A stretch of DNA of 64,000 nucleotides from Acidiferrobacteraceae bacterium (GCA_037388825.1 JARRJV010000025.1:21031-85030); one strand, 5' to 3'. Shown: positions 4,067 to 58,788, counted from the first letter of the stretch. Numbers and translations: made by a program. Notes: generated by a model from the sequence alone, not told the origin.

Positions 4067-5229
4067 CTGTCCGTCGGTGGATGCGGCGGGCGATCCGCCG
4101 CCGTCGCAGTAATGGTCTGCTTCTTGTTGTCGCGCAAAATGGTGAGCCGGACCGCCTCGCCGGGTCTGTGACGAGAGATTGCTGTCTGCGCGTCCCGCCC
4201 GTCGTGGATCGGCTTGCCGTCAATTTCGATGATGACGTCACCCGGCTCAACACCGGCCTTGTGCGCCGGGCCATTGCGCAGGACTCCGATGACCACCACG
4301 CCCTGGGGTTTGTCCAGATTCATGGCCTTGGCAAGACTCGGGGTGACGACATGGGCCTCGATGCCCAGCCAACCGCGGCGCGCGTGACCGTATTCCAGAA
4401 TATCCGACAACACGCCCTTGGCCAGGTTGGACGGGATTGCGAAACCAATCCCCTGGGAGCCGCCGGATCGGGAAAATATTGCTGTATTGATGCCAATGAG
4501 ATTTCCGTAGGCGTCCACCAGGGCGCCACCCGAGTTTCCGGGATTGATGGCGGCATCGGTCTGGATGAAGTTCTCGACGGCATTGATGCCCAGTTTGTTG
4601 CGCCCGGTCGCGCTGACTATGCCCATGGTGACGGTCTGGCCGACGCCGAAGGGATTGCCGATGGCCAGGGTGACATCTCCCACGCGCAACTTGCTGGAAT
4701 CGCCGAGGGTTATGGTGGGCAGGTTCGTCAGGCCCACCTTGAGGACCGCGAGATCGGAATCCGGATCGCTGCCGATCACCTTGGCGCTGGAAGAACGGCC
4801 ATCGCGCAGCGATACCTGGATGGCATCGGCATTCTGGATGACGTGATTGTTGGTGAGGATGTAACCGTTCTTGCTGACGATTACCCCGGAACCCAGACTA
4901 CGTTCCACCCGCTTCTGTGGCCGGATCAGGTCGTCCGGGTTGCCAAAGAACTGGCGAAAGACTGGATCGTCGAAAAAGGGGTGGGGTTTGACCGTCACTA
5001 CCTTGGCGGTATTGACGTTGACCACGGCGGGCGCCGCGTGTGCCACCGCATCCGCATAGGACACCGGGCCCATGGTTCGCGACGACGTGGGGGTGCTCTG
5101 CTCGATCTCTACCGTTGTCGGGCGGCTGCGGGACAACAGGCCGGGTGCAACGACGGTGATCACGAAGGCCAAGGCCAGGCCGGCAACGATGGCCTGCAGG
5201 ACGAATTTCACGCGGCGGGATAGGGCCAT
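4063..5229 (-). CDS. degS: S1C serine endoprotease, AlgW/DegS type (one PDZ domain)
   Basis: 388 aa. N-terminal TM anchor, catalytic-site block TDAAINPGNSGGALV, and a single C-terminal PDZ domain. The match to the AlgW layout is close. Confidence 0.88.
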   Translation of the reverse strand: MALSRRVKFVLQAIVAGLALAFVITVVAPGLLSRSRPTTVEIEQSTPTSSRTMGPVSYADAVAHAAPAVVNVNTAKVVTVKPHPFFDDPVFRQFFGNPDDLIRPQKRVERSLGSGVIVSKNGYILTNNHVIQNADAIQVSLRDGRSSSAKVIGSDPDSDLAVLKVGLTNLPTITLGDSSKLRVGDVTLAIGNPFGVGQTVTMGIVSATGRNKLGINAVENFIQTDAAINPGNSGGALVDAYGNLIGINTAIFSRSGGSQGIGFAIPSNLAKGVLSDILEYGHARRGWLGIEAHVVTPSLAKAMNLDKPQGVVVIGVLRNGPAHKAGVEPGDVIIEIDGKPIHDGRDAQTAISRHRPGEAVRLTILRDNKKQTITATAADRPPHPPTDS

Positions 5230-5367
5230 GAATCGGGGTTCCCTGCTGAGATGATGTAGGGGTCCGCATTGTACACTAGCGCCACATTTTGCAGGTGCAC
5301 GCTGTGCGCATTTTTGCCACGTAAAGGCAGCGTTATGATCCGATTTTCGCCAAAATCCGCGTTTCCC

Positions 5368-5393
5368 TTGACTGAAAAGAGGCGTTGTATAAT
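5368..5393 (+). promoter_or_regulatory. candidate sigma70 promoter for petABC (TTGACT ... extended -10 TGTATAAT)
   Basis: TTGACT lies at 5368-5373 and TGnTATAAT ends at 5393. The spacer is only 14 nt, so the call relies on the extended -10. Confidence 0.35.
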
Positions 5394-5514
5394 CCTATGC
5401 GCCGCCCGAGGGCGCAGAAGTACTTAATAATGTTCTTAACTTCCTGATCGAGCGAATATTTTTGAATCTCCGGGTGTCCATTCCGATCGGCCCGCATCCT
5501 GATTTGGGGGATAA

Positions 5515-6117
5515 ATGAGTAACGATGGCGTTGACCGTAACCGGCGCCGGCTGCTGACGATCACCACCGGCCTGGGCGCTGTGGGTGTAGTCGGTGCAGC
5601 CGTGCCTTTCGTAATGAGTATGGAACCCAGTGCCCGGGCACGCGCCGCGGGCGCACCGGTGGAGGTTCCGATCGGCAAGATCGAGCCGGGACAGATGATT
5701 ACCGTCCAGTGGCGTGGCAAACCGGTATGGGTCCTGCGCCGCACCAAGAAGATGCTGGACGAAATCAAGAAGGATGAATCCCTGCTGGTGGATCCGTTTT
5801 CGAAAGTAAAGACCCAGCAGCCCCCCTACGTGGGTCCCGAAACCCGGTCCATCAAACCCGAATACCTGGTATTGGTGGGGATCTGCACTCACCTCGGTTG
5901 TTCGCCGAAACCAAAGCTCCAGATCGGTGCCGCTTCCGGTATGGGTCCGAACTGGCCGGGCGGTTTCTTCTGCCCCTGTCACGGGTCCAAGTTCGACCTC
6001 TCGGGCCGAGTATTCAAGAACGTCCCGGCGCCGACGAACCTGGTGGTTCCGCCGTACAAGTATCTGAGCGACACCCGCATCATCATCGGTGTCGATGAAA
6101 AGAAAGGAGCGGCGTGA
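5515..6117 (+). CDS. petA: ubiquinol-cytochrome c reductase Rieske iron-sulfur subunit
   Basis: 200 aa. Tat signal (RRRLL) and Rieske boxes CTHLGC and CPCHGS. Confidence 0.92.
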   Translation: MSNDGVDRNRRRLLTITTGLGAVGVVGAAVPFVMSMEPSARARAAGAPVEVPIGKIEPGQMITVQWRGKPVWVLRRTKKMLDEIKKDESLLVDPFSKVKTQQPPYVGPETRSIKPEYLVLVGICTHLGCSPKPKLQIGAASGMGPNWPGGFFCPCHGSKFDLSGRVFKNVPAPTNLVVPPYKYLSDTRIIIGVDEKKGAA

Positions 6118-7508
6118 TGCAAAAGCTGATTTCCTGGATTGACGATCGTTTCCCTCTCATCGAGACGTGGGAATATCATCTTTCGAAGTACTACGCCCCG
6201 AAGAACTTCAACGTCTGGTACTACTTCGGCTCCCTGGCAGTCGTGGTGCTGGTGATTCAGATTGTCACCGGCATCTTTCTGACCATGCACTACAAGCCGG
6301 ATACGCATTTGGCCTTCGCATCGGTCGAGTACATCATGCGCGACGTCGACTACGGGCGCGACGTCGACTACGGCTGGCTGATCCGCTACATGCATTCCAC
6401 CGGTGCATCGTTCTTCTTTATTACGGTCTATCTGCACATGTTCCGCGGCCTGATGTACGGTTCCTATCGCGGCCCGCGTGAACTGCTGTGGATCATCGGT
6501 GTGGTGATCTTCATCGCCCTGATGGCCGAGGCCTTCATGGGCTATCTGCTGCCCTGGGGCAATATGTCCTACTGGGGCGCGCAGGTGATCATTTCCCTGT
6601 TCGATGCCATCCCGTATGTCGGCCATGGTCTGTCGGAGTGGATTCGCGGTGACTTCGTGGTTTCCGACGCGACCCTGAACCGCTTCTTCGCCTTCCACGT
6701 GATCGCGGTTCCCCTGGTTCTGATCGTGCTGGTATTCCTGCACCTGGTGGCCCTGCATGCCGTCGGCTCCAACAACCCCGACGGGATCGAGATCAAGAAG
6801 AACAAGGGCGAGGATGGTATTCCGCTGGACGGGATTCCGTTCCACCCGTACTACACGGTCGGCAAGGACCTGTTCGGTGTGGTGGTGTTCCTGATGATCT
6901 ATTCCGCCGTGGTATTCCTGGGACCGGAACTGGGCGGTATCTTTCTGGAGCATGACAACTTCGTTCCGGCAAACATCCTGCAGACCCCGCCGGAGATCAA
7001 ACCGCTGTGGTATTTCACGCCGTTCTACTCGATTTTGCGTGCGACCACTTCGGATCTGAAGCCGATTCTCGGCGCGTTCTTTGGCGTGGTTGGTGCCATA
7101 TCTGCCTATTATTCGAGGGGCAAGATACTTCGGGTTGGTGTGATTGGCGCGATCGTTGCGGTTCTCATCCTCGGTCTGTACGTGCTGGAGGCCAAGGTGT
7201 GGGGCGTGATCCTGATGGGTAGCTCCCTGGTGGTGCTGTTCTTCCTACCGTGGCTGGACCAGTCGCCGGTCAAATCTGTCCGCTACCGCGGGTGGATCTA
7301 CAAGCTGGCGCTGACGGTGTTCGTGATTGCCTTCATCATTCTCGGATATCTCGGCATGAAGACCCCGGCAGGGGTGGACCTGATCTGGTTCCAGAACAAG
7401 ACCTGGGCACAGGTGTTTACGATCATCTATTTCTCGTTTTTCTTCCTGATGCCGTTCTATACCCGATGGGACAAAACCAAGCCGGTACCGGAGAGGGTGA
7501 CCAAATGA
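6114..7508 (+). CDS. petB: cytochrome b of the bc1 complex
   Basis: 464 aa. Cytochrome b motifs are present (WLIRYMHSTGASFFF, PWGNMSYWGAQVI, PEIKPLWYFTPFY). The start overlaps the petA stop. Confidence 0.92.
   Translation: MMQKLISWIDDRFPLIETWEYHLSKYYAPKNFNVWYYFGSLAVVVLVIQIVTGIFLTMHYKPDTHLAFASVEYIMRDVDYGRDVDYGWLIRYMHSTGASFFFITVYLHMFRGLMYGSYRGPRELLWIIGVVIFIALMAEAFMGYLLPWGNMSYWGAQVIISLFDAIPYVGHGLSEWIRGDFVVSDATLNRFFAFHVIAVPLVLIVLVFLHLVALHAVGSNNPDGIEIKKNKGEDGIPLDGIPFHPYYTVGKDLFGVVVFLMIYSAVVFLGPELGGIFLEHDNFVPANILQTPPEIKPLWYFTPFYSILRATTSDLKPILGAFFGVVGAISAYYSRGKILRVGVIGAIVAVLILGLYVLEAKVWGVILMGSSLVVLFFLPWLDQSPVKSVRYRGWIYKLALTVFVIAFIILGYLGMKTPAGVDLIWFQNKTWAQVFTIIYFSFFFLMPFYTRWDKTKPVPERVTK
6339..6374 (+). 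repeat. in-frame 18-bp tandem duplication inside petB (RDVDYG x2)
   Basis: cgcgacgtcgactacggg (6339-6356) is followed immediately by cgcgacgtcgactacggc (6357-6374). Confidence 0.9.
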
Positions 7509-9369: not shown

Positions 9370-9458
9370 CCCCACTTCGCCCGTCGCGGTCAACCCGCGC
9401 GGTCTCCATATGTTATTGCAGTCACACACATGCCAGCGGTTCTGGCTGCTAGACTACT

Positions 9459-10364
9459 GTGACACACCAACAGGGAGACCGACCGGTGAGACTGCGACGA
9501 ATCGTACCGCTTGCAACACTGCTGGTGTTGCCACACGTGGCGCTCGCGAACGATGTGGGCATCTTTAGCGAGGTTGACGGGGACGTAACGATTCTTCGTG
9601 GCGATACTTATTACCAGGCCGCGACCGGTGTGGATGTCAACGAGCAGGACATCATCGAGACCGGGAAGCAAGGCTCCGCGCAACTGGACCTCGAGGATGG
9701 TTCCAGTCTGCGCATCGCCGGAAACAGCCGGGTACTGCTTTCCGATTATCAGCTTCGCGAGGACGGTAACGTCGTCAGGGCGACGGTCGATGTTCTTACC
9801 GGTTGGCTGCGGTTCGCAGTCAGCAAATTGCATGGCCATTCGAGCTACGGCTTCAACACCCCGGTCATGACCATCGGAATCCGGGGAACCCAGGGCATCA
9901 TTCAGGCCGATACGGGGGACGGCAGCCTGATGCTGGAAGAGGGACATGTTCGCGTTCACGGGATCGATGAAGAAGGAAATGAAAAACCCGGAGAGGAAGC
10001 CGTGGATGCGGGTCAGTATCTTTCTCGCCAACGGGGAAGGATGTTTGCCCGCCGGGCTGGAGCCCCGGCGGGCTTCTGGAGCCGTTTGCCTGCGCGCATG
10101 AAGCTTCGGCTCGTACGCAGGGCGCAGCTTCTGAAGCGGCATGGCATCCAGCCGCGTCCAATCCGGCGCATGCAGCGAAGGGATATGCTTCGCTATCTGC
10201 ACAATCATCCGGCCATGAAGTGGCGCTTGCGCCGTCGTTTTCAGGCGCGATGGAAGGACGATCCCGAATTCCGCAAGGCATTTGCGCGTCACCGTCGAGA
10301 CGTACGCGAGCGACGTCAAAACTGGCGCGAGCGCAGGCGGGTGCACCGGCATTTGGTGGACTAG
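9459..10364 (+). CDS. secreted FecR-domain protein with Arg-rich C-terminal half
   Basis: 301 aa with a signal-like N-terminus. A FecR-type beta-sandwich pattern is present (GDVTILRGD...DIIETGKQGSAQLDLEDGSSLRIAGNSRVLL). The C-terminal ~120 aa are extremely R/K-rich. Confidence 0.6.
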   Translation: MTHQQGDRPVRLRRIVPLATLLVLPHVALANDVGIFSEVDGDVTILRGDTYYQAATGVDVNEQDIIETGKQGSAQLDLEDGSSLRIAGNSRVLLSDYQLREDGNVVRATVDVLTGWLRFAVSKLHGHSSYGFNTPVMTIGIRGTQGIIQADTGDGSLMLEEGHVRVHGIDEEGNEKPGEEAVDAGQYLSRQRGRMFARRAGAPAGFWSRLPARMKLRLVRRAQLLKRHGIQPRPIRRMQRRDMLRYLHNHPAMKWRLRRRFQARWKDDPEFRKAFARHRRDVRERRQNWRERRRVHRHLVD

Positions 10365-10370
10365 GCGATC

Positions 10371-10874
10371 ATGCTGCGGGCCATCCGGGCGGACATCACC
10401 ACGCTGCAAGTTGACGCCATCGTAAATGCGGCCAACGAAAGTCTTTTGGGCGGCGGCGGTGTGGACGGCGCGATCCACCGCGCGGCGGGACCGGAACTGT
10501 TGGCCGCCTGCCGGGAAATCGGGGGTTGTCCCACGGGAGAGGCGCGCATCACGGCCGGATTCCGGTTGCCCGCGCGCTACGTGGTGCACACCGTGGGCCC
10601 GGTCTGGCACGGCGGCGATGCCGGGGAGGCGGCCCTGCTGGCCAATTGCTACCGAAACTCCCTGGAGCTGGCTCTGCAGCAGGGCGATATTCGAACCATC
10701 GCCTTTCCCGGCATCTCCACCGGGGTGTACGGCTATCCCAAGGAAGAGGCCGCGCGGGTCGCGATCACGATTTGTCGCGACTACGACTCGCGCTTTGAGG
10801 AGATCGTATTCTGCTGCTTCAGCGTGGAAGACCGGGAGCGCTACGAGCGACTGCTGGCTGCCGAATCGGACTAA
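10371..10874 (+). CDS. ymdB: macro-domain O-acetyl-ADP-ribose deacetylase
   Basis: 167 aa. [33 protein letters not shown] is the canonical macro-domain motif. Confidence 0.88.
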
Positions 10875-10912
10875 ACCGGTTCATGCCATTGCGGCACGAA
10901 CCGGCCCGATGA

Positions 10913-11596
10913 CTAGTCGCCGATACGGAAACCCATTTTCAAGGAGTAGGAGTTGGTGCCACCGGTATTGTCCGCCTCCACCGTCAGGTTGAATGCGGTC
11001 AGGTCGAAGGCCAGGCCGTAGAAATAGCGGGACCTGGTTTTGCCGTAATCCGAAAAACCACTGCCGCTCAGGTCCGAACCGTTGAGCTGCACGAAACCGA
11101 TGCCGGCATAGGGCGAGATCGGTCCCAAGCCCTTGGAGATACTGGTGTCGAGCCCGGTGGTGGTGGCCTTGAGATAGCCCGGGACCTCATAGCTCGTATA
11201 GGAGCCACGTACGTTCCACGCCGGGGAGGCGATGCCGCCCTTCCAGATGGCGTAGCTCAGGGCCGCGCCGTAGCCGGTACCCGTAACCCCGGTAGTGGGG
11301 ATGCCGATGCTGGTGTAGTAGCCAGCGATGTCGAGGCCGGCGACCAGGCCTTTCTGGAATTTCAGTTTGGGCAGGACCACCGAGTTGCCCTGGAATTTGC
11401 CACTGGTGCCCTCGACGCTGATGTCGAAACCGACGATGCCCAGGGGTGCGGCCGCCGCGACCGCGCGGTACTCGGTGAGGACGCCAAATTCGTCCATCAA
11501 ATTGTTGAATGCGGCCTGCGATGCAGGGGGCGCTGCGTGGGCGACGGAGCTGGCGCCCACGAAGGCGACGGCAACCGGTATAAGACGCTTTTTCAT
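10913..11596 (-). CDS. putative outer-membrane beta-barrel protein
   Basis: Taken from MKKRLIPVAVAFVGASSVAHA (signal peptide). The rest is a Gly/Tyr/Ser/Thr-rich alternating pattern. No family was recognised. Confidence 0.55.
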   Translation of the reverse strand: MKKRLIPVAVAFVGASSVAHAAPPASQAAFNNLMDEFGVLTEYRAVAAAAPLGIVGFDISVEGTSGKFQGNSVVLPKLKFQKGLVAGLDIAGYYTSIGIPTTGVTGTGYGAALSYAIWKGGIASPAWNVRGSYTSYEVPGYLKATTTGLDTSISKGLGPISPYAGIGFVQLNGSDLSGSGFSDYGKTRSRYFYGLAFDLTAFNLTVEADNTGGTNSYSLKMGFRIGD

Positions 11597-11698
11597 TTCT
11601 TCCTCCATTCGGATGGGCCGGTCGCGTAGGGACTGGCATTGCCTGATAACTATAGTATCGGCGAACGCACGGCGAAAACCGTACCGGCCGTCGGTCCC

Positions 11699-47707: not shown

Positions 47708-49435
47708 TTACTGGTTGGTGACGCGCTCGATTTCCTCGAGGCTGGTGACGCCTGCGGCAACCTTGCGCAGGCCGGAGCGGCGCAGGGGGGTTACGCCTTC
47801 CTTCAGCATCTGCTGTTCGATGTCCAGTTCCGTCCCTTCGCGCATGATGATTTCGCCAATCGCCTCGCTCACGGGCATCACTTCATAGATGCCTACACGT
47901 CCTTTATAGCCGCCGTTGCACGAATCGCAACCCACGGGGCCGTAGACGGTGAGTCCGGCGCCGATTTCCTTGTCCGTGAATCCGGCCTTTTGCAGGGCCT
48001 CATTGGGTAAATCCAGCTTGGTCTTGCATTTCTCGCACAGCCGGCGCCCGAGCCGTTGGGCAATGATCAGGTTCACGGCGGAAGCAATATTGAACGGGGG
48101 TACACCCATGTTTACCAGACGCGTCAGGGTGGCCGGGGCGCTGTTGGTATGCAGGGTGGAAAGCACCATGTGACCCGTCTGGGCCGCCTTGATGGCGATG
48201 CTGGCGGTTTCCAGGTCTCGAATCTCACCTACGAGAATGATGTCCGGATCCTGGCGCAGAAAGGCGCGCAGTACGGAGGAAAAATCCAGTCCGGCCTTTT
48301 CATTGATGTTGACCTGGTTGATGCCGCCCAGATTGATTTCCACCGGGTCTTCGGCCGTGGAAATGTTGCGATCCGGCGTGTTCAGGATATTCACCGCCGT
48401 ATATAAGGTAACGGTCTTACCAGACCCCGTCGGGCCGGTGACAAGCACCATTCCGTAAGGCCTGTGGATCGCCTCCATGAACAATTCTTTTTGATCAGAT
48501 TCAAAACCGAGTTTGTCCACACCGATTGTCGCCGAGGTCGGATCGAGGATACGCAGCACGATCTTTTCACCCCAGAGTGTGGGCAGGGTGCTGACACGAA
48601 AATCGATGGCGCGATTCTTGGAGATGCGCATCTTGATGCGTCCGTCCTGCGGCAGACGCCGTTCGGCGATGTCCAGCCGGGACAGGATCTTGACGCGTGC
48701 TGCGATTCGTCCGGACAGTGCCAGGGGAGGGGCGGCCACCTCGTTCAATACGCCATCTACGCGATAGCGTACCCGGTAGGTCTTTTCATAAGGCTCGATG
48801 TGAATATCCGATGCACCGCGGTTGATCGCATCGAGCAGAACCTTGTTGACGAATTTTACGATCGGGGTGTCATTGACTCCGGTCTCATCGCCTCCCGCTC
48901 GATCCTCGGCGTCTTCGGAAACAACGTCGAGGTCATCGAGACCATCCAGGGACTCATCATCCGAAAACTGCGTGAAAGTCGTGTCGTTGGCCTCGAGGAA
49001 CTTGTCAATGGCCTCGCTGAGCTTGTTGTCCTCGACCAGAACCGGTTCGGTAACGCAGCCGGTATGGAACTTGATTTCGTCGAGGGCGGTGACGCTGGTG
49101 GGATCGGAGGTAGCGATATAGAGTCGATTTCCGCGCTTGTACAGGGGCAGTACCCGGTGTCGGCGAATGATCTTTTCGTCAACCAGCTTGACCGGCGCCG
49201 CCTCCACATCGATGGAATTGATATCCACCAGGGGAACGCCGAATTCCTCGGAGGCGATGCGCGCAAGGGTCGCGCTGTCGACCTTCTTGCTTTCAACGGC
49301 GTAGGAAACGAAAGAGGTCTTTTTCTGCAGCGCCCCTTCCTGAAGGCGCTCGGCGTCTTCCGTGGTCAGGAGCTTGTCGCGTACCAGCCGCAGGGCGAGG
49401 CCGCTGAGTCGGGTTGCGGTCGTCGGTGTCGCCAT
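47708..49435 (-). CDS. pilB: type IV pilus assembly ATPase
   Basis: Taken from the ATG at 49435. Walker A GPTGSGKT, the Asp/His boxes, and the tetracysteine CEKC...CDSC are present. Confidence 0.93.
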   Translation of the reverse strand: MATPTTATRLSGLALRLVRDKLLTTEDAERLQEGALQKKTSFVSYAVESKKVDSATLARIASEEFGVPLVDINSIDVEAAPVKLVDEKIIRRHRVLPLYKRGNRLYIATSDPTSVTALDEIKFHTGCVTEPVLVEDNKLSEAIDKFLEANDTTFTQFSDDESLDGLDDLDVVSEDAEDRAGGDETGVNDTPIVKFVNKVLLDAINRGASDIHIEPYEKTYRVRYRVDGVLNEVAAPPLALSGRIAARVKILSRLDIAERRLPQDGRIKMRISKNRAIDFRVSTLPTLWGEKIVLRILDPTSATIGVDKLGFESDQKELFMEAIHRPYGMVLVTGPTGSGKTVTLYTAVNILNTPDRNISTAEDPVEINLGGINQVNINEKAGLDFSSVLRAFLRQDPDIILVGEIRDLETASIAIKAAQTGHMVLSTLHTNSAPATLTRLVNMGVPPFNIASAVNLIIAQRLGRRLCEKCKTKLDLPNEALQKAGFTDKEIGAGLTVYGPVGCDSCNGGYKGRVGIYEVMPVSEAIGEIIMREGTELDIEQQMLKEGVTPLRRSGLRKVAAGVTSLEEIERVTNQ

Positions 49436-49555
49436 GGTTGTGGATGAAACTCCCGGTGATCTTTCAGTCGGTGGCATACAACACGACCCGGATACAATTA
49501 TCGTGCCCGAGCCGATTCACTGCTACTCGTATGATAGTAGATGAGATGTTGCGCG

Positions 49556-49581
49556 CAGCCAAACATTTTTGGCTGTTTTTT
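49556..49581 (+). terminator. orphan terminator-like hairpin in the pilB-rubrerythrin intergenic region
   Basis: cagccaaa-catt-tttggctg followed by tttttt on the + strand. No + strand gene lies upstream. Confidence 0.45.
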
Positions 49582-49677
49582 CATGTACCACAACAAGGGG
49601 ACAAAACAGGCTTTCCCGGGGAGATTGTGGGGCTTGATGGATATCAATGCGCCTGTGTGCCCGCTCTCCGAGAATGA

Positions 49678-49706
49678 TTGACACCGGAAAGGCAAAAAAT
49701 TAGAAT
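49678..49706 (+). promoter_or_regulatory. sigma70 promoter of the rubrerythrin operon
   Basis: TTGACA (49678-83), a 17-nt spacer, then TAGAAT (49701-06). The AGGAG RBS precedes the ATG at 49734. Confidence 0.65.
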
Positions 49707-49733
49707 GGTTCTAAATCGGTTAGGAGCACCCTC

Positions 49734-50150
49734 ATGGACCTTAAAGGAAGCAAGACGGAAGAAAGCCTGAAAGAGGCCTTTGCCGGCGAGTCCCAGGCCA
49801 ATCGCCGCTATCTCTACTTCGCAGCCAAGGCGGATGTCGAAGGTTACAACGACGTTTCCGCAGTGTTTCGCTCCACGGCGGAAGGCGAAACCGGCCATGC
49901 CCATGGCCATCTCGAATACCTGGAGGCCGTCGGCGATCCGGCCACCGGTCTGCCGATTGGCAGCACCTCGGACAACCTGAAGGCGGCCATCGCCGGTGAG
50001 ACCCACGAGTATACCGATATGTACCCGGGTATGGCCAAGACGGCCCGCGACGAAGGTTTCGACGAAATCGCAGACTGGTTCGAGACCCTGGCCAAGGCCG
50101 AGCGGTCCCACGCCAATCGTTTCCAGAAGGCGCTGGATTCGATGGACTAG
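49734..50150 (+). CDS. rubrerythrin-family diiron protein (no rubredoxin domain)
   Basis: 138 aa. The two ExxH diiron motifs are present ([10 protein letters not shown].. and [11 protein letters not shown]). Confidence 0.88.
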
Positions 50151-50163
50151 ACCGCCGGGAAGA

Positions 50164-50199
50164 CCCCGACCCCCTCCGAAATGGGGGACGGGGTTGATT
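50164..50199 (+). terminator. intra-operon hairpin (possible attenuating terminator) after rubrerythrin
   Basis: ccccgaccccc / gggggacgggg form an 11-bp stem with a central mismatch and an 8-nt loop, followed by ttgattcc. Confidence 0.4.
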
Positions 50200-50265
50200 C
50201 CCGTTCGTGCACGGGCTGTGCGAATCCCGACCCGAGACAAACGTTCGAATCGGAAAATAACCAAA

Positions 50266-51606
50266 ATGGCAGATTCCACCGGAAAGCGAGAAGGAAGCCT
50301 GGAGGCCCCCACGCGCCACCCCCTGGAGTGGACCGAGGCCGGTTTCTGGAACGAGGATTCCCTGTTCGACGAATTGGAGCGTGTTTTTGACATTTGCCAC
50401 GGCTGCCGCCGTTGCGTGAGTTTGTGCCATTCCTTTCCGACCCTGTTCGATCTGGTGGACGAATCCGACACCATGGAAGTAGACGGGGTCGCCAAAGCGG
50501 ATTTCTGGAAGGTCGTGGATCACTGTTATCTCTGCGACCTCTGCTACATGACCAAGTGTCCCTACGTTCCGCCCCATGAATGGAACGTGGATTTTCCCCA
50601 CCTGATGCTCCGCGCCAAGGCGGTGCGATTCCGCCAGAATGGCGCTAGCCTGCGGGACAAGATGCTCAGCGCTACCGATGTCGTCGGCTCCCTGGCCGGC
50701 ATCCCGGTGATTGCGCAAATCGTGAATGCGGCCAATCACACGGGAATCGCGCGCAAGGCCCTGCAGGCCATTGCAGGAATTGATGCGGATGCGATTGTCC
50801 CGGAATACCACAGCAAGACCCTGCGCAAGTTGTACAAGAATCATGATTCCGGTCTGACTCCCGTGCCCACGGCCGAAACCCGGGGCAAGGTAGCCTTGTT
50901 CGCAACCTGCTACGGGAATCGCAATGAGCCCGAGGTTGGCGCAGACCTCATCAAGGTCTTCGAGCACAACGGAATACCTGTCGTGCTGGCGGAGAAAGAA
51001 CAATGTTGCGGCATGCCCAAGCTGGAACTGGGTGATCTGGAAGCCGTGGCAAGGGCGAAGGAAGCGAACATTCCCGTATTGGTGCAACTGGTCGACGCAG
51101 GTTATGACCTGGTGGCCCCGGTGCCGAGCTGCGCGTTGATGTTCCGTCAGGAACTGCCGCTGATGTTTCCGGACGATCCGGACGTGACCAAGGTGCGCGA
51201 TGCCTTTTTTGATCCCTTCGAATATCTGGCACTGCGGCATCGGGAAGGGAAGCTGAACACGAATTTCAGTCAAAGCCTGGGCAAGGTGGTTTGGCACGTG
51301 CCTTGTCACCAGCGGGTGCAGAACATCGGTCCCAAGACACGCGACATCCTGTCCCTGGTCCCGGACACCGAAATCGAGACCGTGGAACGATGCTCTGGTC
51401 ATGATGGAACCTATGCGGTAAAGAAGGAATTTCACGAGATCTCGATGAAGATCTGCCGCCCGGTTGTTGGGCGAGTGGAAAAGGCCGAACCCGATCACTA
51501 CACCAGCGACTGTCCCATGGCTGGTCATCAAATCGAGAATGGGCTGAAAAACGGAAAGGCACCGGAGCACCCCCTCACCCTGCTGCGTCAGGCCTACGGA
51601 CTATAA
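50266..51606 (+). CDS. (Fe-S)-binding CCG-domain oxidoreductase (HdrD/GlpC-like)
   Basis: Taken from the ATG at 50266. The product has two ferredoxin-type clusters (CHGCRRCVSLC, CYLCDLCYMTKCP). It also has two Cys-rich CCG-type modules (ATCYGN...CCGMP, VPCHQ...CSGHDG). Confidence 0.8.
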   Translation: MADSTGKREGSLEAPTRHPLEWTEAGFWNEDSLFDELERVFDICHGCRRCVSLCHSFPTLFDLVDESDTMEVDGVAKADFWKVVDHCYLCDLCYMTKCPYVPPHEWNVDFPHLMLRAKAVRFRQNGASLRDKMLSATDVVGSLAGIPVIAQIVNAANHTGIARKALQAIAGIDADAIVPEYHSKTLRKLYKNHDSGLTPVPTAETRGKVALFATCYGNRNEPEVGADLIKVFEHNGIPVVLAEKEQCCGMPKLELGDLEAVARAKEANIPVLVQLVDAGYDLVAPVPSCALMFRQELPLMFPDDPDVTKVRDAFFDPFEYLALRHREGKLNTNFSQSLGKVVWHVPCHQRVQNIGPKTRDILSLVPDTEIETVERCSGHDGTYAVKKEFHEISMKICRPVVGRVEKAEPDHYTSDCPMAGHQIENGLKNGKAPEHPLTLLRQAYGL

Positions 51607-51618
51607 CGAGGAACGAAA

Positions 51619-51906
51619 ATGGCAAGCGAAGGCTATCACGAGGAAGTACAGGATCTGTCCGATGAGACGCGCGACATGCATCGCGCGATCGTATCCCTGA
51701 TGGAAGAACTGGAGGCGGTGGACTGGTACAACCAGCGCGTCGATGCGTGCAAGGATCCTGAACTCAAAGCCATCCTCGCGCACAATCGCGACGAGGAGAA
51801 GGAACATGCGTCCATGGTGCTGGAGTGGATCCGTCGCAAGGATCCGCGTTTCGATCATGAGCTGAAAGACTACCTGTTTACCGACAAGGAAATTGCACAC
51901 AAGTGA
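51619..51906 (+). CDS. encapsulated-ferritin-like (EncFtn family) protein lacking a cargo-loading tail
   Basis: 95 aa. HRAIVSLMEELEAVDWYNQRVDACKDPELKAILAHNRDEEKEHASMVLEWIRR closely parallels my recollection of the Rhodospirillum rubrum EncFtn core, including the E...ExxH metal ligands. Confidence 0.75.
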   Translation: MASEGYHEEVQDLSDETRDMHRAIVSLMEELEAVDWYNQRVDACKDPELKAILAHNRDEEKEHASMVLEWIRRKDPRFDHELKDYLFTDKEIAHK

Positions 51907-51950
51907 TGGCGGTCGATACAGGTTTGGGAACACACGTGGAGAATGGCCCT

Positions 51951-52538
51951 ATGTCCCGGAAACTCAAGCGCGAAGATCTGTGGAGTCTCGAAGAGTATGC
52001 CCGCGAGCGGGCCGGGTTCCGCGTCCAGGTGATGGCGCACAAGAAGAATCGTCAGATTCATATCGGCCCGAATGTGACGCTCTATTTCGAAGACCGGATG
52101 ATCATGCAGTACCAGATCCAGGAAATGCTTCGTGCCGAACGGATCTTCGAGGACGAAGGGATCCAGGAGGAGCTGGATGCCTACAATCCGCTCATTCCCG
52201 ACGGCACCAACTGGAAAGCAACTTTCATGATCGAGTTTTCCGACGAGGATGAGCGACGCGACGCGCTTGCCCGCATGGTCGGGATCGAGGACCGTGTGTG
52301 GGTACAGGTTCACGGATTCGACCGGGTCTGGGCCATCGCCGACGAGGATCTGGAGCGCGAAACCGAAGAAAAGACCTCGTCCGTACATTTCCTGCGTTTT
52401 GAGTTGAGTCCGGAGATGATCCAGGCAGTCAAGACAGGTGCGGACATCGGTGTAGGGATCGACCATGATGCCTACCGGTACGGCGTCGATACTCTGGCGG
52501 CTCCAAATCGGGAATCCCTGCTGGACGATTTGAACTAG
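51951..52538 (+). CDS. DUF3501-like protein
   Basis: MSRKLKREDLWSLEEYA...LYFEDRMIMQYQIQEMLRAERIFE...NPLIPDGTNWKATFMIEF resembles DUF3501 as I recall it. Alternative upstream starts at 51903/51906 overlap the preceding stop. Confidence 0.6.
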   Translation: MSRKLKREDLWSLEEYARERAGFRVQVMAHKKNRQIHIGPNVTLYFEDRMIMQYQIQEMLRAERIFEDEGIQEELDAYNPLIPDGTNWKATFMIEFSDEDERRDALARMVGIEDRVWVQVHGFDRVWAIADEDLERETEEKTSSVHFLRFELSPEMIQAVKTGADIGVGIDHDAYRYGVDTLAAPNRESLLDDLN

Positions 52539-52685
52539 CCGGGATCGGGCCGGATGCCCGCGGCCCTTGTCATCTTCGCGGATTCGTGCGAAGTTTTCGC
52601 GCCATGATCAATATACATTCGTGGCGCAGCACATCCGGCCGTCCGGCTCCGTTCACGTTGGTTCACCCGATCTCCTTTTTTCTCC

Positions 52686-54578
52686 ATGGCATCGACATAC
52701 GATTCGTCGGCGATTGAGGTCCTGACCGGCCTGGAGCCGGTGCGCAAGCGTCCGGGGATGTATACCCAGACCGAGCGCCCAAACCATCTGGCGCAGGAAG
52801 TCATCGACAACAGCGTCGATGAGGCCATCGCCGGACACGCGAAGAAGATCGACGTCACGTTGCACAAGGATGGATCGGTGTCCGTATCCGACGACGGGCG
52901 AGGCATGCCGGTCGACAAGCACAAGGAAGAAAAGGTGTCCGGGGTGGAGGTCATCCTGACCCGGCTTCATGCCGGTGGCAAGTTCTCCGGCAAGAATTAC
53001 ACTTTCTCCGGCGGTCTCCACGGAGTGGGCGTATCAGTGGTCAATGCCCTTTCCGAGAAGCTGGAGGTGGAAGTGCGCCGTGGCGGCAAGATCTATCGCA
53101 TGAGCTTTGCCGACGGTCAAAAAACATCGGAACTTCGGGCCTCCGGCAAGTGCAAAGCCTCCGAAAGCGGGACGACGGTGCATTTCTGGCCCGATCCCAA
53201 ATTTTTTGATTCACCCAAGATCAGCGTACCGCGCCTGAAACATGTCATGCGTGCCAAGGCGGTTTTGTGCCCGGGGCTGACCGTCACTTTCCACAATGGC
53301 GGCAACAAGGCCGATGACGAGCAGTGGTACTACGAGGGCGGGCTTTCCGATTACCTATTGTCCGAACTGGAAGGCGAGACCCTGTTGCCGGATACGCCGT
53401 TTACAGGGAACAGCGTCGGAGAACTGGAACAGGTTGATTGGGCGGTGGTGTGGTTGCCGGAGGGTGGGGAACCGGTACTGGAGAGCTACGTCAATCTCAT
53501 CCCGACGGTACAGGACGGTACCCACGTAAACGGATTCCGCAGCGGGTTGACCGAGGCCATGCGTGAGTTCTGCGAGCTGCGCAATCTCTTGCCCAAGGGT
53601 GTCAAGATCGCCCCCGACGATGTGTGGGGCAGATGCAGCTTTGTCCTGTCCCTGAAAATGCAGGATCCCCAGTTCTCCGGGCAGACCAAGGACCGCCTGT
53701 CCTCGCGGGAAGCGGCGGGATTTGTCGCATCCGCGTCGCGCGATGCCTTTGGTCTGTGGCTGAACCAGCACGTGAAGATGGCCGAGGCCATCGCCGAACT
53801 GGTGATTGATAGTGCCCAGGCCCGGATGCGCGCGGGCAAGCGCGTGGAGCGCAAGAAGATCAGTGCGGGACCGGCGTTGCCGGGCAAACTGTCGGATTGC
53901 CTGAGCCAGGACCTGGGGCAGACGGAGTTATTCCTGGTGGAGGGAGATTCCGCCGGTGGTTCGGCGAAGCAGGCACGCGACCGCAACTACCAGGCGGTCA
54001 TGCCGCTGCGCGGCAAGATCCTGAACACCTGGGAAGTCGACCCGGGCGAGGTGTTGGGCTCGAAAGAGGTCCATGACATCGCTGTTGCCCTCGGGGTGGA
54101 CCCCGGCTCCAGCAGACTCGACGGCTTGCGCTACGGCAAGGTGTGCATCCTTGCCGATGCCGACTCCGACGGCGCCCACATTGCGACGCTCCTCTGCGCC
54201 CTGTTTGTGCGTCACTTCCGTTCCCTGGTGCAGGCGGGCCATGTGTATGTCGCCATGCCGCCCCTGTACCGCATCGATATCGGCAAGCACGTGTTCTATG
54301 CCCTGGACGATGCCGAGAAAAAGCAGGTTCTGAAACGAATCGAAGACGAGAAGCTGCGCGGAAAGGTCAATGTGCAGCGCTTCAAGGGACTTGGGGAGAT
54401 GAACCCCTCCCAGCTACGCGAGACCACCATGGCGCCGGATACGCGACGACTGGTCCAGCTGACGGTTCGCGCCGGGGACAACACCAACAAGGTGCTGGAC
54501 ATGCTGCTGGCCAAGAAACGGGCGGCGGACCGCAAGTCATGGCTGGAGAAGAAAGGTAACAAGGCCGAGGTTCTGTAA
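52686..54578 (+). CDS. parE: DNA topoisomerase IV subunit B
   Basis: 630 aa. The short GHKL-TOPRIM type B subunit ([19 protein letters not shown]) ends ...[18 protein letters not shown].... parC follows. Confidence 0.92.
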
Positions 54579-54657
54579 TTCATGGCGACCCGGAAGAAAA
54601 AAGCGGCGAAGAAATCCGCGAAGAAAAAGGCCGCGCGCAAGACTGATCGTCTATGCC

Positions 54658-56745
54658 ATGTCCGAACTGGGCCTGAACGCCGCCGCCAAGTACAAGAAGT
54701 CAGCGCGCACCGTAGGTGACGTATTGGGCAAGTTCCATCCCCATGGTGATACGGCCTGCTACGAGGCCATGGTGCTCATGGCCCAGCCCTTCAGCTATCG
54801 CTATCCACTGGTGGACGGACAGGGCAACTGGGGATCGCTGGACGATCCAAAGTCGTTTGCCGCCATGCGCTATACCGAGGCTCGGCTAGCCCGTTATTCA
54901 CAGGTCCTGTTGTCGGAACTGGGGCAGGGGACGGCGGATTGGGTGCCCAACTTCGATGGTACGCTGGAAGAACCCCGCGTATTGCCCGCACGCCTGCCCA
55001 ACGTGCTGCTGAACGGAACCACCGGCATCGCTGTGGGTATGGCTACCGACATTCCGCCGCACAATCTGCGCGAGGTCGGGGCCGCCTGCGTACAGCTGCT
55101 GGAGAAGCCGTCCAGCAGCATTGCCGATCTGTGCAAACACATTCAGGGACCGGACTTCCCTACCGATGCGGAAATCATCACGCCGCAACGCGAGATCCGG
55201 GAGATTTACGAGAGCGGCAATGGCACGGTTCGCATGCGTGCGCACTGGCGCCAGGAGGAGGGCGAAATCGTGGTTGACGCCCTGCCGTACCAGGTCTCCA
55301 GTGGCAAGATTCTGGAACAGATCGCCGCCCAGATGCAGGCCAAGAAACTGCCCATGGTTGAAGACCTGCGCGACGAATCGGACCAGGAGCATCCGGTCCG
55401 TCTCGTTATCGTTCCCCGCTCGTCCCGGGTCGATGCCCAGCAGATGATGTCCCATCTCTTCGCCACCACGGATCTCGAGCGCAACTATCGCGTCAATCTG
55501 AACATCATTGATCTGACCGGTCGCCCGCGGGTGTACAACCTGCGTGATTTGCTCCGCGACTGGATCGATTACCGGCTCGAGACCGTACGAAGGCGCCTGC
55601 AGTATCGCTTCGACCGCGTCGTCGCGCGATTGCATGTCCTGGAAGGCCTGATGCTGGCCTACCTGAACCTGGACGAGGTGATTCGCATCATTCGTACCGA
55701 GGATGAGCCAAAACCGAAACTGATCAAGCGATTCAAGCTCACGGACATCCAGGCGGAAGCGATCCTGGAAACGCGGTTGCGGCACCTGGCCAAACTCGAG
55801 GAAATGAAGATCCGCGGCGAGCAGGAAGAGTTGACAGTAGAACGGGACAGTCTGGACAAGATTCTCAAGTCCAAAACGCGCCTCAGAACGCTGGTGAAAA
55901 ACGAAATCAAGGACGATATGCATGAGTTTGGCGACGAACAACGCTCGCCTATCGTCGAGCGCGAAGCGGCACAGGCCATCGATCAGGCATCGTTGTTGCC
56001 CACGGAACCGATTACCGTTGTTCTTTCACAAAAGGGTTTCGTGCGTGCGGCACGCGGGCACGAGATTGACCCTCGTTCCCTGTCCTACCGTTCCGGGGAC
56101 GAATATCTGCACCACGCCCGCGGGCGAAGCAATCAACTGGCAATCTTCATCGATTCGACCGGCCGTGCGTATTGCCAGCCGGCACACAAACTGCCTTCGG
56201 CCCGGGGGCAGGGAGATCCGGTGGCGAGCTACTTCAATCCGCCTCCGGGCGCGACCTTCGCCGGTGTAATCATGGGGCAGCCGGACGACCTGTATCTACT
56301 CTCAACGGATTCCGGCTACGGCTTTGTCGCCCGTCTGGAAGACCTGCTGACCCGGACCCGCAACGGCAAGGCGGTCCTGAAGGTGCCCAAGGGTGCACGC
56401 GTTCTGCCACCGCAAAGGGTCATGAGCCATGAAGAAGACTGGGTCGCGGCAGTGACCAATACCGGGCGCTTGTTGACCTTCATGATCGGTGAGCTGCCGG
56501 CCATGGCCCGCGGCAAGGGAATCAAGATCATCAACGTCCCGACCAAGAAAGCCGCGGCACGGGAAGAGTTCGTCGTTTCCGTTTGTGTGTTTCCGGAGGA
56601 CAAGGGATTGACGGTCTATGCCGGACAGAAGAAGCGGGTCCTTACGGTAGACGATCTGGATCAGTTCATCGGCGAGCGGGGCCTGCGTGGCAGCAAACTG
56701 CCCAAGGGCTACCAGAAGGTTGAGCGGATGGAGGTCACGGAATAG
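54658..56745 (+). CDS. parC: DNA topoisomerase IV subunit A, apparently 5'-truncated (conserved N-terminal ~35-50 aa missing)
   Basis: The ORF begins at [31 protein letters not shown].... This aligns to about residue 49 of E. coli ParC and about residue 55 of P. aeruginosa ParC as I recall them. The active-site AAMRYTE is present. Only 79 nt separate it from the parE stop. Confidence 0.8.
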
Positions 56746-56885
56746 ACATCGGATCGTGACCGGTGCTTGCACACAGGCTGTTTCCATCCGGAAGAAAGGA
56801 ATATCATTGTGGGCTTTGTCGTCGCCGGAATGAATCGACGTTGCGGTTACCGGCCTCCGGAAGTGCCAGCATCAGGGGCAGGACC

Positions 56886-58040
56886 ATGTCACGGAAATTT
56901 CGCTTTTTCCAAGTCCTTTTGATCCTCAATCTGGCCGCCACGGCGCGGGCTGTGGCGGATCTCCCCCAGGCGATCGACCAGCAGAACCTGAATCTCGCCG
57001 CCACAAGGACGGGCGGTGCGCCCGCATCGAACTACCTCGAAAATGCGTCCACTCCGGAACCCTACAAAAGCGGCTGGGAATTCGTCCTCGACAACGATGC
57101 CTTCTCCCTGCTACGCCGGGATTCGGACTACACGGGCGGGTTCATGCTCAGCCTGTCCGGCCATCGCGCGGCCGAGTATCCCTATTCGATCGATCCCTGG
57201 CTTAGCCGGCTGGACCAATGGACCGGTCTCGATAGCCTGAAGGATGTCCCCGGTGCGCGCCAGACACACAACATTGTTTTTGGCCTCGCTTCCTACACGC
57301 CAAAAAACATCCAGCTTGCGACACCAATTTACAATGAGCGTCCCTATGCGAGCGTGCTGTTCATGGCCAACAGCCAGCAGACGGTCATTCCAGAACAGGA
57401 AGTTGCCCATCAGACCACGCTGACGCTTGGGGTCCTGGGTCTGAAGGTAGCCAAGGACTTGCAGGATGCTATCCACAGCGCACTCGGCCAAAATGGCGCC
57501 TCCGGATGGGACAACCAGATCTCGAGTGGCGGCGAACTCACTGCTCGCTACACGGTCTCCGCGCAGCGCGCCTACATGACAAAATATAATAATCCGGAGC
57601 GCGACATCGATGTTGTCCGTACCATGGACGCGAGCATCGGCTATAAGACCGATTTTGGAGCGGGACTGGCGTTTCGCATCGGACGCATCCGTTCCACGTG
57701 GTGGTCATACAATCGAAGTCAGCCGGACTATCTCAATATGGTATCGCCCGTATTGCGGAGCGGATCGAAACCCCGCGATGAGTTCTTTCTTTGGGGGGGT
57801 ATCAACGCCCGGGTGCAGTTATACAACGCATTGTTGCAGGGGCAGTTCCGCGACAGTGCCGTGACCTTTTCCTGGGAACAACAAAATCACTTCCTGTTGA
57901 GCGGGTGGCTTGGACTCAATCGGCAGTACCGCAACGGTTTGCGCGTCGCCTTTGTCATTCGGGCAAACACTCCGGAACTGAATACAGCCACGGAGCATAC
58001 GGACCTTTGGGGAAGCTTCATCGTGGGCCGTTCGTTCTAG
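56886..58040 (+). CDS. outer-membrane lipid A deacylase LpxR-family (DUF2219) protein
   Basis: Taken from MSRKFRFFQVLLILNLAATARAVA (signal peptide). The DNDAFSLLRRDSDYTGG motif and beta-barrel character are typical of the family as I recall it. Confidence 0.6.
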   Translation: MSRKFRFFQVLLILNLAATARAVADLPQAIDQQNLNLAATRTGGAPASNYLENASTPEPYKSGWEFVLDNDAFSLLRRDSDYTGGFMLSLSGHRAAEYPYSIDPWLSRLDQWTGLDSLKDVPGARQTHNIVFGLASYTPKNIQLATPIYNERPYASVLFMANSQQTVIPEQEVAHQTTLTLGVLGLKVAKDLQDAIHSALGQNGASGWDNQISSGGELTARYTVSAQRAYMTKYNNPERDIDVVRTMDASIGYKTDFGAGLAFRIGRIRSTWWSYNRSQPDYLNMVSPVLRSGSKPRDEFFLWGGINARVQLYNALLQGQFRDSAVTFSWEQQNHFLLSGWLGLNRQYRNGLRVAFVIRANTPELNTATEHTDLWGSFIVGRSF

Positions 58041-58056: not shown

Positions 58057-58305
58057 TCACGTGTTCGCGGGGCGTCGTATCATCTCGTACAGTTTGTCCT
58101 TCAGGTGTACCCGGCGCATCTTGAGCGGCTCGAGGTACTCGTCTGATGTGGGTTCAATATCCTGTTCGTGCCGGTAGATCTCCTGATCTACATCGTGGTA
58201 TTCGTCGAACAATTCACGAAATTCCGGATCACTGACCTTGAGTTCGTGGATACGGTCCTGGTATTCGGGGAATTCGCGAACCAGCGGGTGGTGTTCAAGC
58301 GTCAT
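58057..58305 (-). CDS. DUF465 (YdcH-like) small protein
   Basis: Taken from the ATG at 58305: MTLEHHPLVREFPEYQDRIHELKVSDPEFRELFDEYHDVDQEIYRHEQ.... Confidence 0.75.
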   Translation of the reverse strand: MTLEHHPLVREFPEYQDRIHELKVSDPEFRELFDEYHDVDQEIYRHEQDIEPTSDEYLEPLKMRRVHLKDKLYEMIRRPANT

Positions 58306-58467
58306 GGGGTCAGTCCTCAGTTGCGTTTTTCTGATTGCCAAAATAGCATAGTCGTGCCTATATCGTACTTGTCACGGATCAATTTCCATCGTAGCGGGCA
58401 TGGGCTTCTCCTGGTTGTGGGACCCGGGCCGCACGCGAAGGTAGTTACCAAGGCGGAGACCTGGCTC

Positions 58468-58788
58468 GTGAAACTGGGAATCGTTATCTATTCAGGGGAT
58501 CCGGAAACGGTGTGGAACGGATTCCGGCTGGGCTTGCTGGCCTTGAGTGCCAATGATTCAGTCAGTGTCTTTCTACTGGCCAAGGGAGTGGAGGCCGAGC
58601 TCATGGATACGGAACAATACGTCGTTTCGGAAAAACTGGTGGAGTTCGTCGAAGCCGGAGGCAAGGTAATGAGCTGTGGTACCTGTCTCGTGGCCCGTTC
58701 GCTCGATGCTTCCAAGTACTGCAAGTCGGCAACCATGGGATCGCTCTACGACTTGATCAAGGAATCAGACAAGGTCATCTCCTTGTAG
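58468..58788 (+). CDS. DsrE/DsrF-like family protein
   Basis: The GTG at 58468 gives VKLGIVIYSGDPETVWNGFRLGLLALSANDSVSVFLLAKGVE...MSCGTCLVAR...DKVISL. The track ORF from 58168 is an extension antisense to DUF465. Confidence 0.65.
   Translation: MKLGIVIYSGDPETVWNGFRLGLLALSANDSVSVFLLAKGVEAELMDTEQYVVSEKLVEFVEAGGKVMSCGTCLVARSLDASKYCKSATMGSLYDLIKESDKVISL

Follow-up and report, generated by a model that had tools for sequence, protein, structure and literature searches.

The aerobic-type rubrerythrins (RBRs), a lineage without the rubredoxin domain, were defined by Cardenas, Quatrini and Holmes in 2016 as part of a co-localised and co-occurring module with two further proteins, a COG0247/CCG iron-sulfur (Fe-S) oxidoreductase, to which these authors gave the name RFO, and a protein of the DUF3501 family (PMC5114695). 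The complete triple was present in 185 of 4461 genomes and the RBR-DUF3501 pair in 25, RFO and DUF3501 were fused in Nitrosomonas, and in Hydrogenobacter thermophilus the RFO gene lay apart from the other two (PMC5114695). The same three-gene cluster was reported from Gammaproteobacteria in a study of Acidihalobacter (PMC7760498), and Gray et al. described it in 2020 as a “three-component aerobic-type rubrerythrin system”, which is targeted to the mitochondrion in several protists (PMC7050145). The sole RBR of the lineage that has been tested, ferriperoxin (Fpx) of H. thermophilus, uses NADPH and FNR to reduce H2O2 and organic hydroperoxides, and the organism cannot grow aerobically without it (PMC3317640). 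Although the core system is widespread, two of its three proteins are without a demonstrated function, and no biochemical role is assigned to RFO or DUF3501 in the open-access full text that we searched. Here we analyse a stretch of 64,000 nucleotides from an Acidiferrobacteraceae bacterium (GCA_037388825.1 JARRJV010000025.1:21031-85030; the window), in which the segment 49678-52538 carries four genes on the + strand, encoding an RBR, an RFO, a small EncFtn-like ferritin-like protein (s-FLP) and a DUF3501 protein.

Our results indicate that this locus very probably belongs to the published aerobic-type rubrerythrin system. The window has the same three families in the same gene order and the same kind of rubredoxin-less RBR, and all four sequence features of the system (a rubredoxin-less RBR, RFO, DUF3501 and a conserved cluster) were found in it. 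Unlike the system as described, it adds an s-FLP gene between RFO and DUF3501, and an operator of the type known as iron control element (ICE, or Irr-box). Searches with hidden Markov models (Pfam, NCBIfam) uphold the family of each of the four products, including the last two, as the initial annotation had proposed. That annotation had also taken the gene set to be an unstudied one, a view that does not hold for RBR-RFO-DUF3501, which has been published and named (PMC5114695, PMC7050145). Its statement that no function had been shown stands for RFO and DUF3501 and fails for the RBR, whose homologue ferriperoxin is a peroxidase (PMC3317640). Like the RBR of the window, ferriperoxin is of the aerobic-type lineage without a rubredoxin domain; its peroxidase assays contained NADPH and FNR, and neither RFO nor DUF3501. 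What is new here is the presence of an encapsulin-less s-FLP inside the operon, an Irr-type operator over the promoter in a gammaproteobacterium, and the conservation of a hairpin after rbr. Current views are not overturned by these findings, which narrow the search for the way in which rubredoxin-less rubrerythrins are re-reduced in aerobes.

The conserved core

To determine frequencies we used two surveys of neighbourhoods, one anchored on DUF3501 (the best 80 of at least 597 matches, 59-75% identical and mostly from Gammaproteobacteria) and a reciprocal one anchored on s-FLP (the best 80 of about 600 matches, all metagenome loci). The frequencies obtained are valid for close, mostly gammaproteobacterial relatives, a restriction that counts against extending them to the system at large. 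The arrangement RBR-RFO-(FLP)-DUF3501, in one order and on one strand, was found at 66 of the 80 DUF3501 loci. Of the other 14, ten run off the end of a contig and four depart from the pattern: two have RBR and DUF3501 without RFO (L037 and L049), one is without RBR (L003) and one has DUF3501 alone (L043). This layout is far above chance. The identity to clusters in other Gammaproteobacteria is 84-96% for RBR, 54-78% for RFO and 59-75% for DUF3501. The co-occurrence of all four families, for which the initial annotation had suggested a survey of this kind, is thus borne out for RBR-RFO-DUF3501 and not for the set of four, as s-FLP is present in about one fifth of the clusters and ~94% of its closest homologues have another location. 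Four relatives whose DUF3501 is 78-83% identical to that of the window keep the synteny pilC-pilB / rbr-RFO-sFLP-DUF3501 / parE-parC, and comparison of the window with them gives ratios of non-synonymous to synonymous substitution rates (dN/dS) of 0.01-0.08 for all four genes, s-FLP included, at dS of ~0.9-1.9.

The rbr product matches profile positions 1-136 of 137 of its Pfam family. The NCBIfam rubrerythrin model covers it at positions 3-144 of 194 only, and because this match ends at 144 the protein can be said to lack the rubredoxin domain, in agreement with the initial annotation. All seven di-iron ligand positions are present, as read from the translation (E19, E52-x-x-H55, E89, E92 and E123-x-x-H126), and the dN/dS of the gene is 0.01-0.03.

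The spacer of 115 nucleotides between rbr and the RFO gene folds into a stable structure (-49.4 kcal/mol, z = -3.2 against shuffled sequences), so that the hairpin previously noticed after rbr is real, with its main stem-loop starting just after the stop codon (Table 1). The structure, a strong GC-rich stem-loop, is conserved at related loci, where z is below -2 in 54 of 66 spacers (median z -2.9), while the sequences are unrelated; a T-run follows some of these hairpins and none follows others. No known RNA family was matched in 49300-52800 by Rfam at a permissive threshold. The initial annotation had proposed that the hairpin could set a high ratio of rubrerythrin to the downstream products, an idea that gains support because the hairpin structure is conserved across related loci. 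Its role would probably be to keep RBR above the downstream proteins, via partial termination or a stabilised processed 3' end.

RFO is a protein of the GlpC/HdrD type with two 4Fe-4S motifs and two CCG modules, as was initially proposed. The gene starts at 50266 instead of 50267, and the second module reads CSG rather than CCG. Like the GlpC/HdrD/LutA-type proteins it has an N-terminal double ferredoxin-type cysteine motif (C44xxC47xxC50xxxC54 and C87xxC90xxC93xxxxC98) followed by two CCG (PF02754) modules, here with the cysteines C215/C247-C248/C289 and C347/C376/C416. Fifteen cysteines are invariant across 67 sequences, and the dN/dS of the gene is ~0.06. Unlike those proteins, RFO has a reduced number of cysteines in its CCG modules and scores below the GlpC equivalog cut-off, and unlike those systems the operon encodes neither a dehydrogenase nor a membrane subunit as a partner. 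Among named models GlpC comes nearest, with scores under the cut-offs (242 bits against 278 for NF008369, 161 against 280 for TIGR03379), and no glpAB partner genes were found near RFO in the window; the sub-cut-off scores and the lack of glpA or glpB nearby speak against RFO being GlpC, the subunit C of anaerobic glycerol-3-phosphate dehydrogenase. The protein is probably soluble: no membrane-spanning helix was detected, hydrophobic residues making up at most 12 of 20 in any 20-residue window. In Nitrosomonas (L078) RFO and DUF3501 form a single fusion of 656 amino acids.

The DUF3501 protein matches its Pfam profile in full. Alignment with 39 homologues of 194-211 amino acids places its start at the ATG at 51951. 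The N-terminal extensions in some gene calls are unconserved, and we rejected the overlapping GTG/ATG start (51903/51906) on the N-termini of the homologues. The initial description of the last three genes as tightly packed was therefore right about the gap of 12 nucleotides between RFO and s-FLP and the junction of 44 nucleotides before DUF3501, and wrong about the overlapping alternative. Cysteine is absent from the protein, whose fold is alpha/beta and in which no cofactor motif was detected. It is homologous to PDB entry 3FJV (Burkholderia pseudomallei YP_111841.1, a structural-genomics ‘novel protein’), with E = 6e-56 and, by Foldseek, a template-modelling (TM) score of 0.88 at 51% identity. 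As its AlphaFold 2 model (pLDDT 90) retrieves from the PDB 3FJV alone, the next TM being below 0.3, the fold is an orphan that gives no functional lead; 3FJV is itself without functional annotation or any other structural neighbour in the PDB, and so does not explain the function of DUF3501. The family comprises ~2,600 clusters at 50% identity, and no new informative domain fusions were found in the top 150 of a representative search.

Table 1. Features of the rubrerythrin operon and its flanks, in coordinates of the window
Feature	Position	Strand	Basis
Sigma-70-type promoter, -35 TTGACA, 17-nucleotide spacer, -10 TAGAAT	49678-49683 (-35), 49701-49706 (-10)	+	consensus scan, 11/12
Perfect palindrome TTAGAAtggTTCTAA, Irr-box/ICE-like	49700-49714	.	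matches TTTAGAA-N3-TTCTAAA, overlaps -10 hexamer
rbr, aerobic-type rubrerythrin, 138 amino acids	49734-50150	+	PF02915, 1e-29
Two adjoining GC-rich stem-loops, no U-tract	50156-50203, 50204-50224	+	folding; directly after rbr stop codon
RFO, GlpC/HdrD-like CCG Fe-S protein, 446 amino acids	50266-51606	+	two PF02754 stretches
s-FLP, EncFtn-like ferritin-like protein, 95 amino acids	51619-51906	+	PF22277, 5e-45
DUF3501 protein, 195 amino acids	51951-52538	+	PF12007, 2e-73, full profile
Weak candidate terminator, stem CTTCGC/GCGAAG then TTTTCG	52574-52599	+	read from sequence; low confidence

The EncFtn-like gene

Proteins of the EncFtn type are ferroxidases (PMC5012862). The s-FLP class was named in a 2024 review, which describes the unpublished structure 3K6C as a decamer and leaves the function open (PMC11202242); the word rubrerythrin occurs solely in its reference list. 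Neither a function nor a genomic partner of the class is reported in the open-access full text that we searched. Conversely, s-FLP is not mentioned in the Cardenas and Gray papers, and the term “encapsulin” does not occur in the text of PMC5114695. The operon of the window gives s-FLP, a protein with a structure and no known function, a setting in peroxide defence.

The s-FLP of the window has the properties of the class (PMC11202242), namely a length of ~95 amino acids, similarity to EncFtn, and a C-terminus with neither a long disordered part nor a targeting peptide. Nitrosomonas europaea has a very similar protein, NE0167 (PDB 3K6C, ten chains in the entry), also of 95 amino acids; the two align from residue 1 to residue 95 with E = 3e-47, and their identity as counted from this alignment is ~80%. 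Like the EncFtn proteins of known structure (5DA5, 5N5F) it has the stretches that hold the residues of the ferroxidase centre, MEELEAVDWY and EEKEH being identical in Rhodospirillum rubrum EncFtn (5DA5), while unlike EncFtn it has neither a targeting peptide nor an encapsulin neighbour. These likenesses raise the question of whether s-FLP could be the cargo of an encapsulin shell whose gene lies at another site in the genome, with the operon feeding an encapsulated iron store. With 137 bits the protein passes the cut-off (125) of TIGR04535, the NCBIfam model of encapsulin-associated ferritin-like proteins, it closely resembles encapsulated ferritins of solved structure, and the 2024 review leaves encapsulation of s-FLPs possible (PMC11202242). 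However, the match to TIGR04535 covers profile positions 1-88 of 114 only, and the protein ends at residue 95, so that the C-terminal encapsulin-targeting peptide is missing; the encapsulated homologues in the PDB have 98-140 amino acids. The s-FLP class is both abundant and very highly conserved: its 120 best cluster representatives are 83-91% identical, and nearly all are of 94-96 amino acids. No shell gene adjoins s-FLP, whose neighbours are RFO and DUF3501, and no encapsulin was found among the open reading frames (ORFs) of the window with a Pfam match, a check that is incomplete as several ORFs have no match (within the cell-division cluster, ORF calling in part chose the wrong strand). 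The 80 s-FLP loci have no shared neighbour, encapsulin included, the commonest one (an MscS-like channel) being present in eight. We consider it highly improbable that s-FLP is an encapsulin cargo.

A second question is whether s-FLP has anything to do with the genes that surround it. It could be a passenger, an independent stand-alone gene that landed in the operon in some lineages and is mechanistically unconnected with RBR, RFO and DUF3501. Its distribution goes some way in this direction: s-FLP lies between RFO and DUF3501 in just 14 of the 66 complete loci, plus one further locus cut by a contig end, so that ~80% of related clusters do without it, and 75 of the 80 closest s-FLP loci (~94%) stand alone, away from RBR, RFO and DUF3501 and in varied contexts. 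The five loci counted as linked are L092 and L122, with s-FLP between RFO and DUF3501, L105, with s-FLP after DUF3501, L146, with s-FLP 0.9 kb downstream, and L132, which has no cluster gene on its contig, yet is the sole s-FLP locus with an ICE-like site upstream of s-FLP. Linked and stand-alone copies are intermixed, without diagnostic residues or a separate clade for those in operons. Decayed remnants of s-FLP occupy the slot between RFO and DUF3501 in two Thiodiazotropha-type symbionts, one being an internally deleted frame that joins the N- and C-terminal parts (L069, 5759-6000) and the other a set of frameshifted fragments (L044, 97-421); the gene is intact in a close relative (L073). 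An ICE motif was present at one of 70 stand-alone s-FLP loci, which rules out a regulon common to the stand-alone genes as the cause of the occasional linkage.

Against the passenger explanation, all s-FLP copies in the clusters share the strand of the other genes and are tightly spaced, most of them in the same slot, and loci that bear the gene fall in at least eight separate branches of the RFO+DUF3501 tree, with sister loci that differ in having or lacking it. Metagenomes also show it linked in other ways, following DUF3501 in L105 and beside a peroxiredoxin in L146. Moreover, the gene is retained in all four closest relatives with shared synteny and is under strong purifying selection (dN/dS 0.02-0.04) across them at dS of ~1-1.9. 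A mere passenger is rather unlikely. We conclude that s-FLP is a recurrent, selectively maintained but dispensable accessory of the rubrerythrin system, and not part of its defining core.

One s-FLP homologue (P0160, 88% identical, 99 amino acids) carries a source annotation that makes it a putative integron gene cassette protein. This annotation hints at mobility of s-FLP, and mobility would agree with the patchy occurrence of the gene among rbr clusters.

Operator and candidate regulators

The promoter noted in the initial annotation is borne out by the consensus scan, in which it is the sole match of its strength in the region. What that annotation missed is an Irr-box-like operator placed over the -10 hexamer. 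The palindrome TTAGAAtggTTCTAA is the only match of its kind in the 64-kb window; taken alone it is not significant, as 22 of 100 shuffled sequences have at least one match. Its significance follows from its conservation upstream of rbr: TTAGA-N5-TCTAA, with at most one mismatch, is present within 200 nucleotides upstream of rbr at 50 of 64 related loci, and 53 of the 62 such sites in 772 kb of locus sequence fall in these upstream zones. The consensus derived from the loci, tTTAGA[C/A]TnA[G/T]TCTAAa, matches the ICE of alphaproteobacterial Irr, for which 5'-TTTAGAA-N3-TTCTAAA-3' has been given (PMC1698941). The -10 hexamer is also inside the left half of the palindrome in L001, L004, L012, L033 and L039.

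In the comparative study of Rodionov et al. (2006), the conserved targets of the Irr regulon are genes for iron storage and iron-using proteins, and a rubrerythrin-like gene was predicted as a minimal Irr target in Pelagibacter, Rhodospirillum and Magnetospirillum; neither Irr nor ICE was found outside the Alphaproteobacteria (PMC1698941). The core of the window operator is identical to the consensus of that regulon and its placement over the promoter fits repression, while the host lineage, unlike those of the described regulon, is gammaproteobacterial. Bradyrhizobium blr7895, a classic Irr target, was not used as evidence of an Irr-controlled RBR cluster, as it is called MbfA-like in PMC3413700.

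Genes of the Fur family adjoin several related clusters, divergent from rbr in three Thiodiazotropha-type symbionts (L016, L069, L073) and convergent after DUF3501 in five loci (L058, L161, L162, L164, L166). Their products have an HHH or HQH motif and no CxxC pairs, and the JGI source annotation of several of them reads “Fur family iron response transcriptional regulator”. Unlike alphaproteobacterial Irr, they are intermediate between Irr and PerR. In ~12 kb of the L161-L166 loci, ICE-like sites with at most one mismatch are confined to the upstream regions of rbr and the regulator gene, a pattern that suggests autoregulation. L058, whose rbr side is off the contig, also has an ICE-like site upstream of the regulator gene. 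Because of the ICE motif, its conservation and the adjacency of regulator genes in relatives, we infer that an Irr/PerR-like protein, with its gene outside the window, represses the operon. The operator and the nearby Irr-like regulators of related loci link the system to the sensing of iron, haem or peroxide in Gammaproteobacteria.

Upstream of the promoter by ~100 nucleotides, in the intergenic region between pilB and rbr, the + strand has a terminator-like hairpin and T-run (49555-49585, GCAGCCAAACATTTTTGGCTGT followed by TTTTTT), a predicted element that insulates the operon from upstream read-through. At the other end, the candidate terminator after DUF3501 fails the terminator scan, having only four T; the spacer between DUF3501 and parE that contains its hairpin (52539-52685, 147 nucleotides) folds at -58.9 kcal/mol (z = -3.0).

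Proposed mechanism and genomic setting

The reading that we favour, and regard as moderately probable, is that the operon encodes a cytoplasmic module for the reduction of hydroperoxides. RBR would be the catalytic di-iron peroxidase, by extension from ferriperoxin. The soluble RFO, given its co-occurrence and Fe-S content, could return electrons to the di-iron site of RBR and thereby replace the missing rubredoxin domain, with NAD(P)H-linked flavoproteins, dithiols or quinols as possible donors; the initial annotation had suggested a donor of the thiol/disulfide or quinone type. DUF3501 may join RBR to RFO as a docking or assembly partner, a role suggested by its fusion to RFO in Nitrosomonas, its persistence with RBR where RFO is absent and its lack of a redox-cofactor motif. 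s-FLP would form an encapsulin-independent ring of the EncFtn type, most likely oxidising free Fe(II) in peroxide stress or servicing di-iron sites, as an optional part. Transcription would proceed from the near-consensus sigma-70 promoter, with an Irr/PerR-like repressor sitting on the -10 hexamer until relieved by sufficiency of iron or haem and/or by peroxide, and the hairpin after rbr would lead to more RBR than the three downstream proteins.

Several results weigh against this scheme or parts of it. Ferriperoxin worked in vitro with NADPH and FNR alone (PMC3317640), and the link of RFO and DUF3501 to RBR turnover is a prediction. The CCG modules of RFO have just four and three invariant cysteines, and the second reads CSG, which makes the cluster content of both modules uncertain. 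The absence of s-FLP from most clusters, its stand-alone occurrence and its decay in the two symbionts all speak against a necessary place for it in the module. As to control, no Fur-family gene was matched in the window below E = 2, with a sequence of Escherichia coli Fur as the probe; the adjacent proteins of relatives (L016, L058) match the NCBIfam IrrA/Irr models best (5e-33, 114 and 110 bits) and do so below the cut-offs of 150 and 170; and with Leptospira PerRA as the next-best match (83 bits) the signal sensed may be iron, haem or peroxide. Lastly, the hairpin after rbr in the window has no U-tract.

The operator also invites a different explanation, in which the operon is mainly a device for iron homeostasis, with RBR and s-FLP as ferroxidases that buffer Fe(II) or render it harmless, RFO moving electrons to or from bound iron, and the Irr-type operator switching the genes off at iron scarcity as a form of iron sparing. 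The match to ICE and the nature of the Irr targets are in line with it (PMC1698941), as is the composition of the operon, with two products of the ferritin superfamily and a third that is an Fe-S protein. EncFtn-type proteins are ferroxidases, and the rubrerythrin of Pelagibacter has been described as a putative ferroxidase whose transcript responds to iron (PMC2864753). However, the RBR tested in H. thermophilus is a hydroperoxide reductase, whose loss abolishes aerobic growth and tolerance of reactive oxygen species (PMC3317640); no product matches a cage-forming ferritin family, and no encapsulin is among the neighbours with a Pfam match; s-FLP is optional; and the neighbours in L146, a peroxiredoxin and a thioredoxin-reductase-like gene, point to an antioxidant function. 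An operon devoted chiefly to iron homeostasis appears improbable to us, and the hydroperoxide-reducing module remains the preferred account.

A stronger version of that account would make s-FLP a true fourth component, a di-iron decamer that works without encapsulin and passes electrons or iron to and from RFO and RBR, for instance as a second RFO-driven peroxidase or as a metallochaperone for the di-iron site of RBR, and would make the module a conserved core target of an Irr/PerR-like repressor sensing haem, iron or peroxide well outside the Alphaproteobacteria. We hold this combination to be doubtful; if true, it would provide the first physiological role for the s-FLP class and change the limits known for the Irr-ICE circuit.

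The remainder of the window looks like ordinary chromosome, with tatC, petABC, the mraZ-to-lpxC cell-division cluster, secA, pilBCD and parE-parC. The last pair lies downstream of DUF3501 (52686-56745). At 29 of the 80 surveyed loci parE also follows DUF3501 directly, followed by parC in 24, which gives the rbr cluster a conserved chromosomal position. Upstream, a divergent gene for an ispA-like prenyl diphosphate synthase is present at 29 loci, a dxs-like gene at 23 and an xseB-like gene at 13 (names given by reading of the sequence, without hidden Markov models), and in the window and its four closest relatives pilB-pilC take their place. The closest relatives of the operon are metagenome-assembled genomes labelled Acidiferrobacterales or Gammaproteobacteria. 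Further along the window, a gene for a DsrE/DsrF-like protein (58168-58788), downstream of one for an LpxR-like outer-membrane protein (56763-58040), might point to sulfur metabolism.

Other genes accompany the cluster in relatives. At 13 of the 80 loci DUF3501 is followed, in the same orientation, by a gene for a CNP1-like protein (PF08750, ~170-190 amino acids) whose N-terminus resembles that of a lipoprotein (L078, at 5088-5606, and L004, L006, L007, L017, L022, L023, L033, L041, L050, L055, L056 and L059), and in L078 it has an overlap of four nucleotides at the stop codon of the fused RFO-DUF3501. There is none in the window; it may be a second recurrent accessory of the cluster. In L146, a single strand (2642-7262) carries rbr, RFO, DUF3501, a 1-Cys/AhpC-type peroxiredoxin, s-FLP and a thioredoxin-reductase-like flavoprotein of 318 amino acids, which together form an extended antioxidant cluster. 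Finally, four loci (L161, L162, L164 and L166, at about 9400-11600) have upstream of rbr, on the opposite strand, a gene for a pyridine-nucleotide disulfide oxidoreductase of 464-468 amino acids (Pyr_redox_2 and Pyr_redox_dim), with a gene for an FGE-sulfatase domain between it and rbr in three of the four. In this lineage, which also has the adjacent Irr-like gene, the oxidoreductase is a candidate for an NAD(P)H-linked entry point of electrons.

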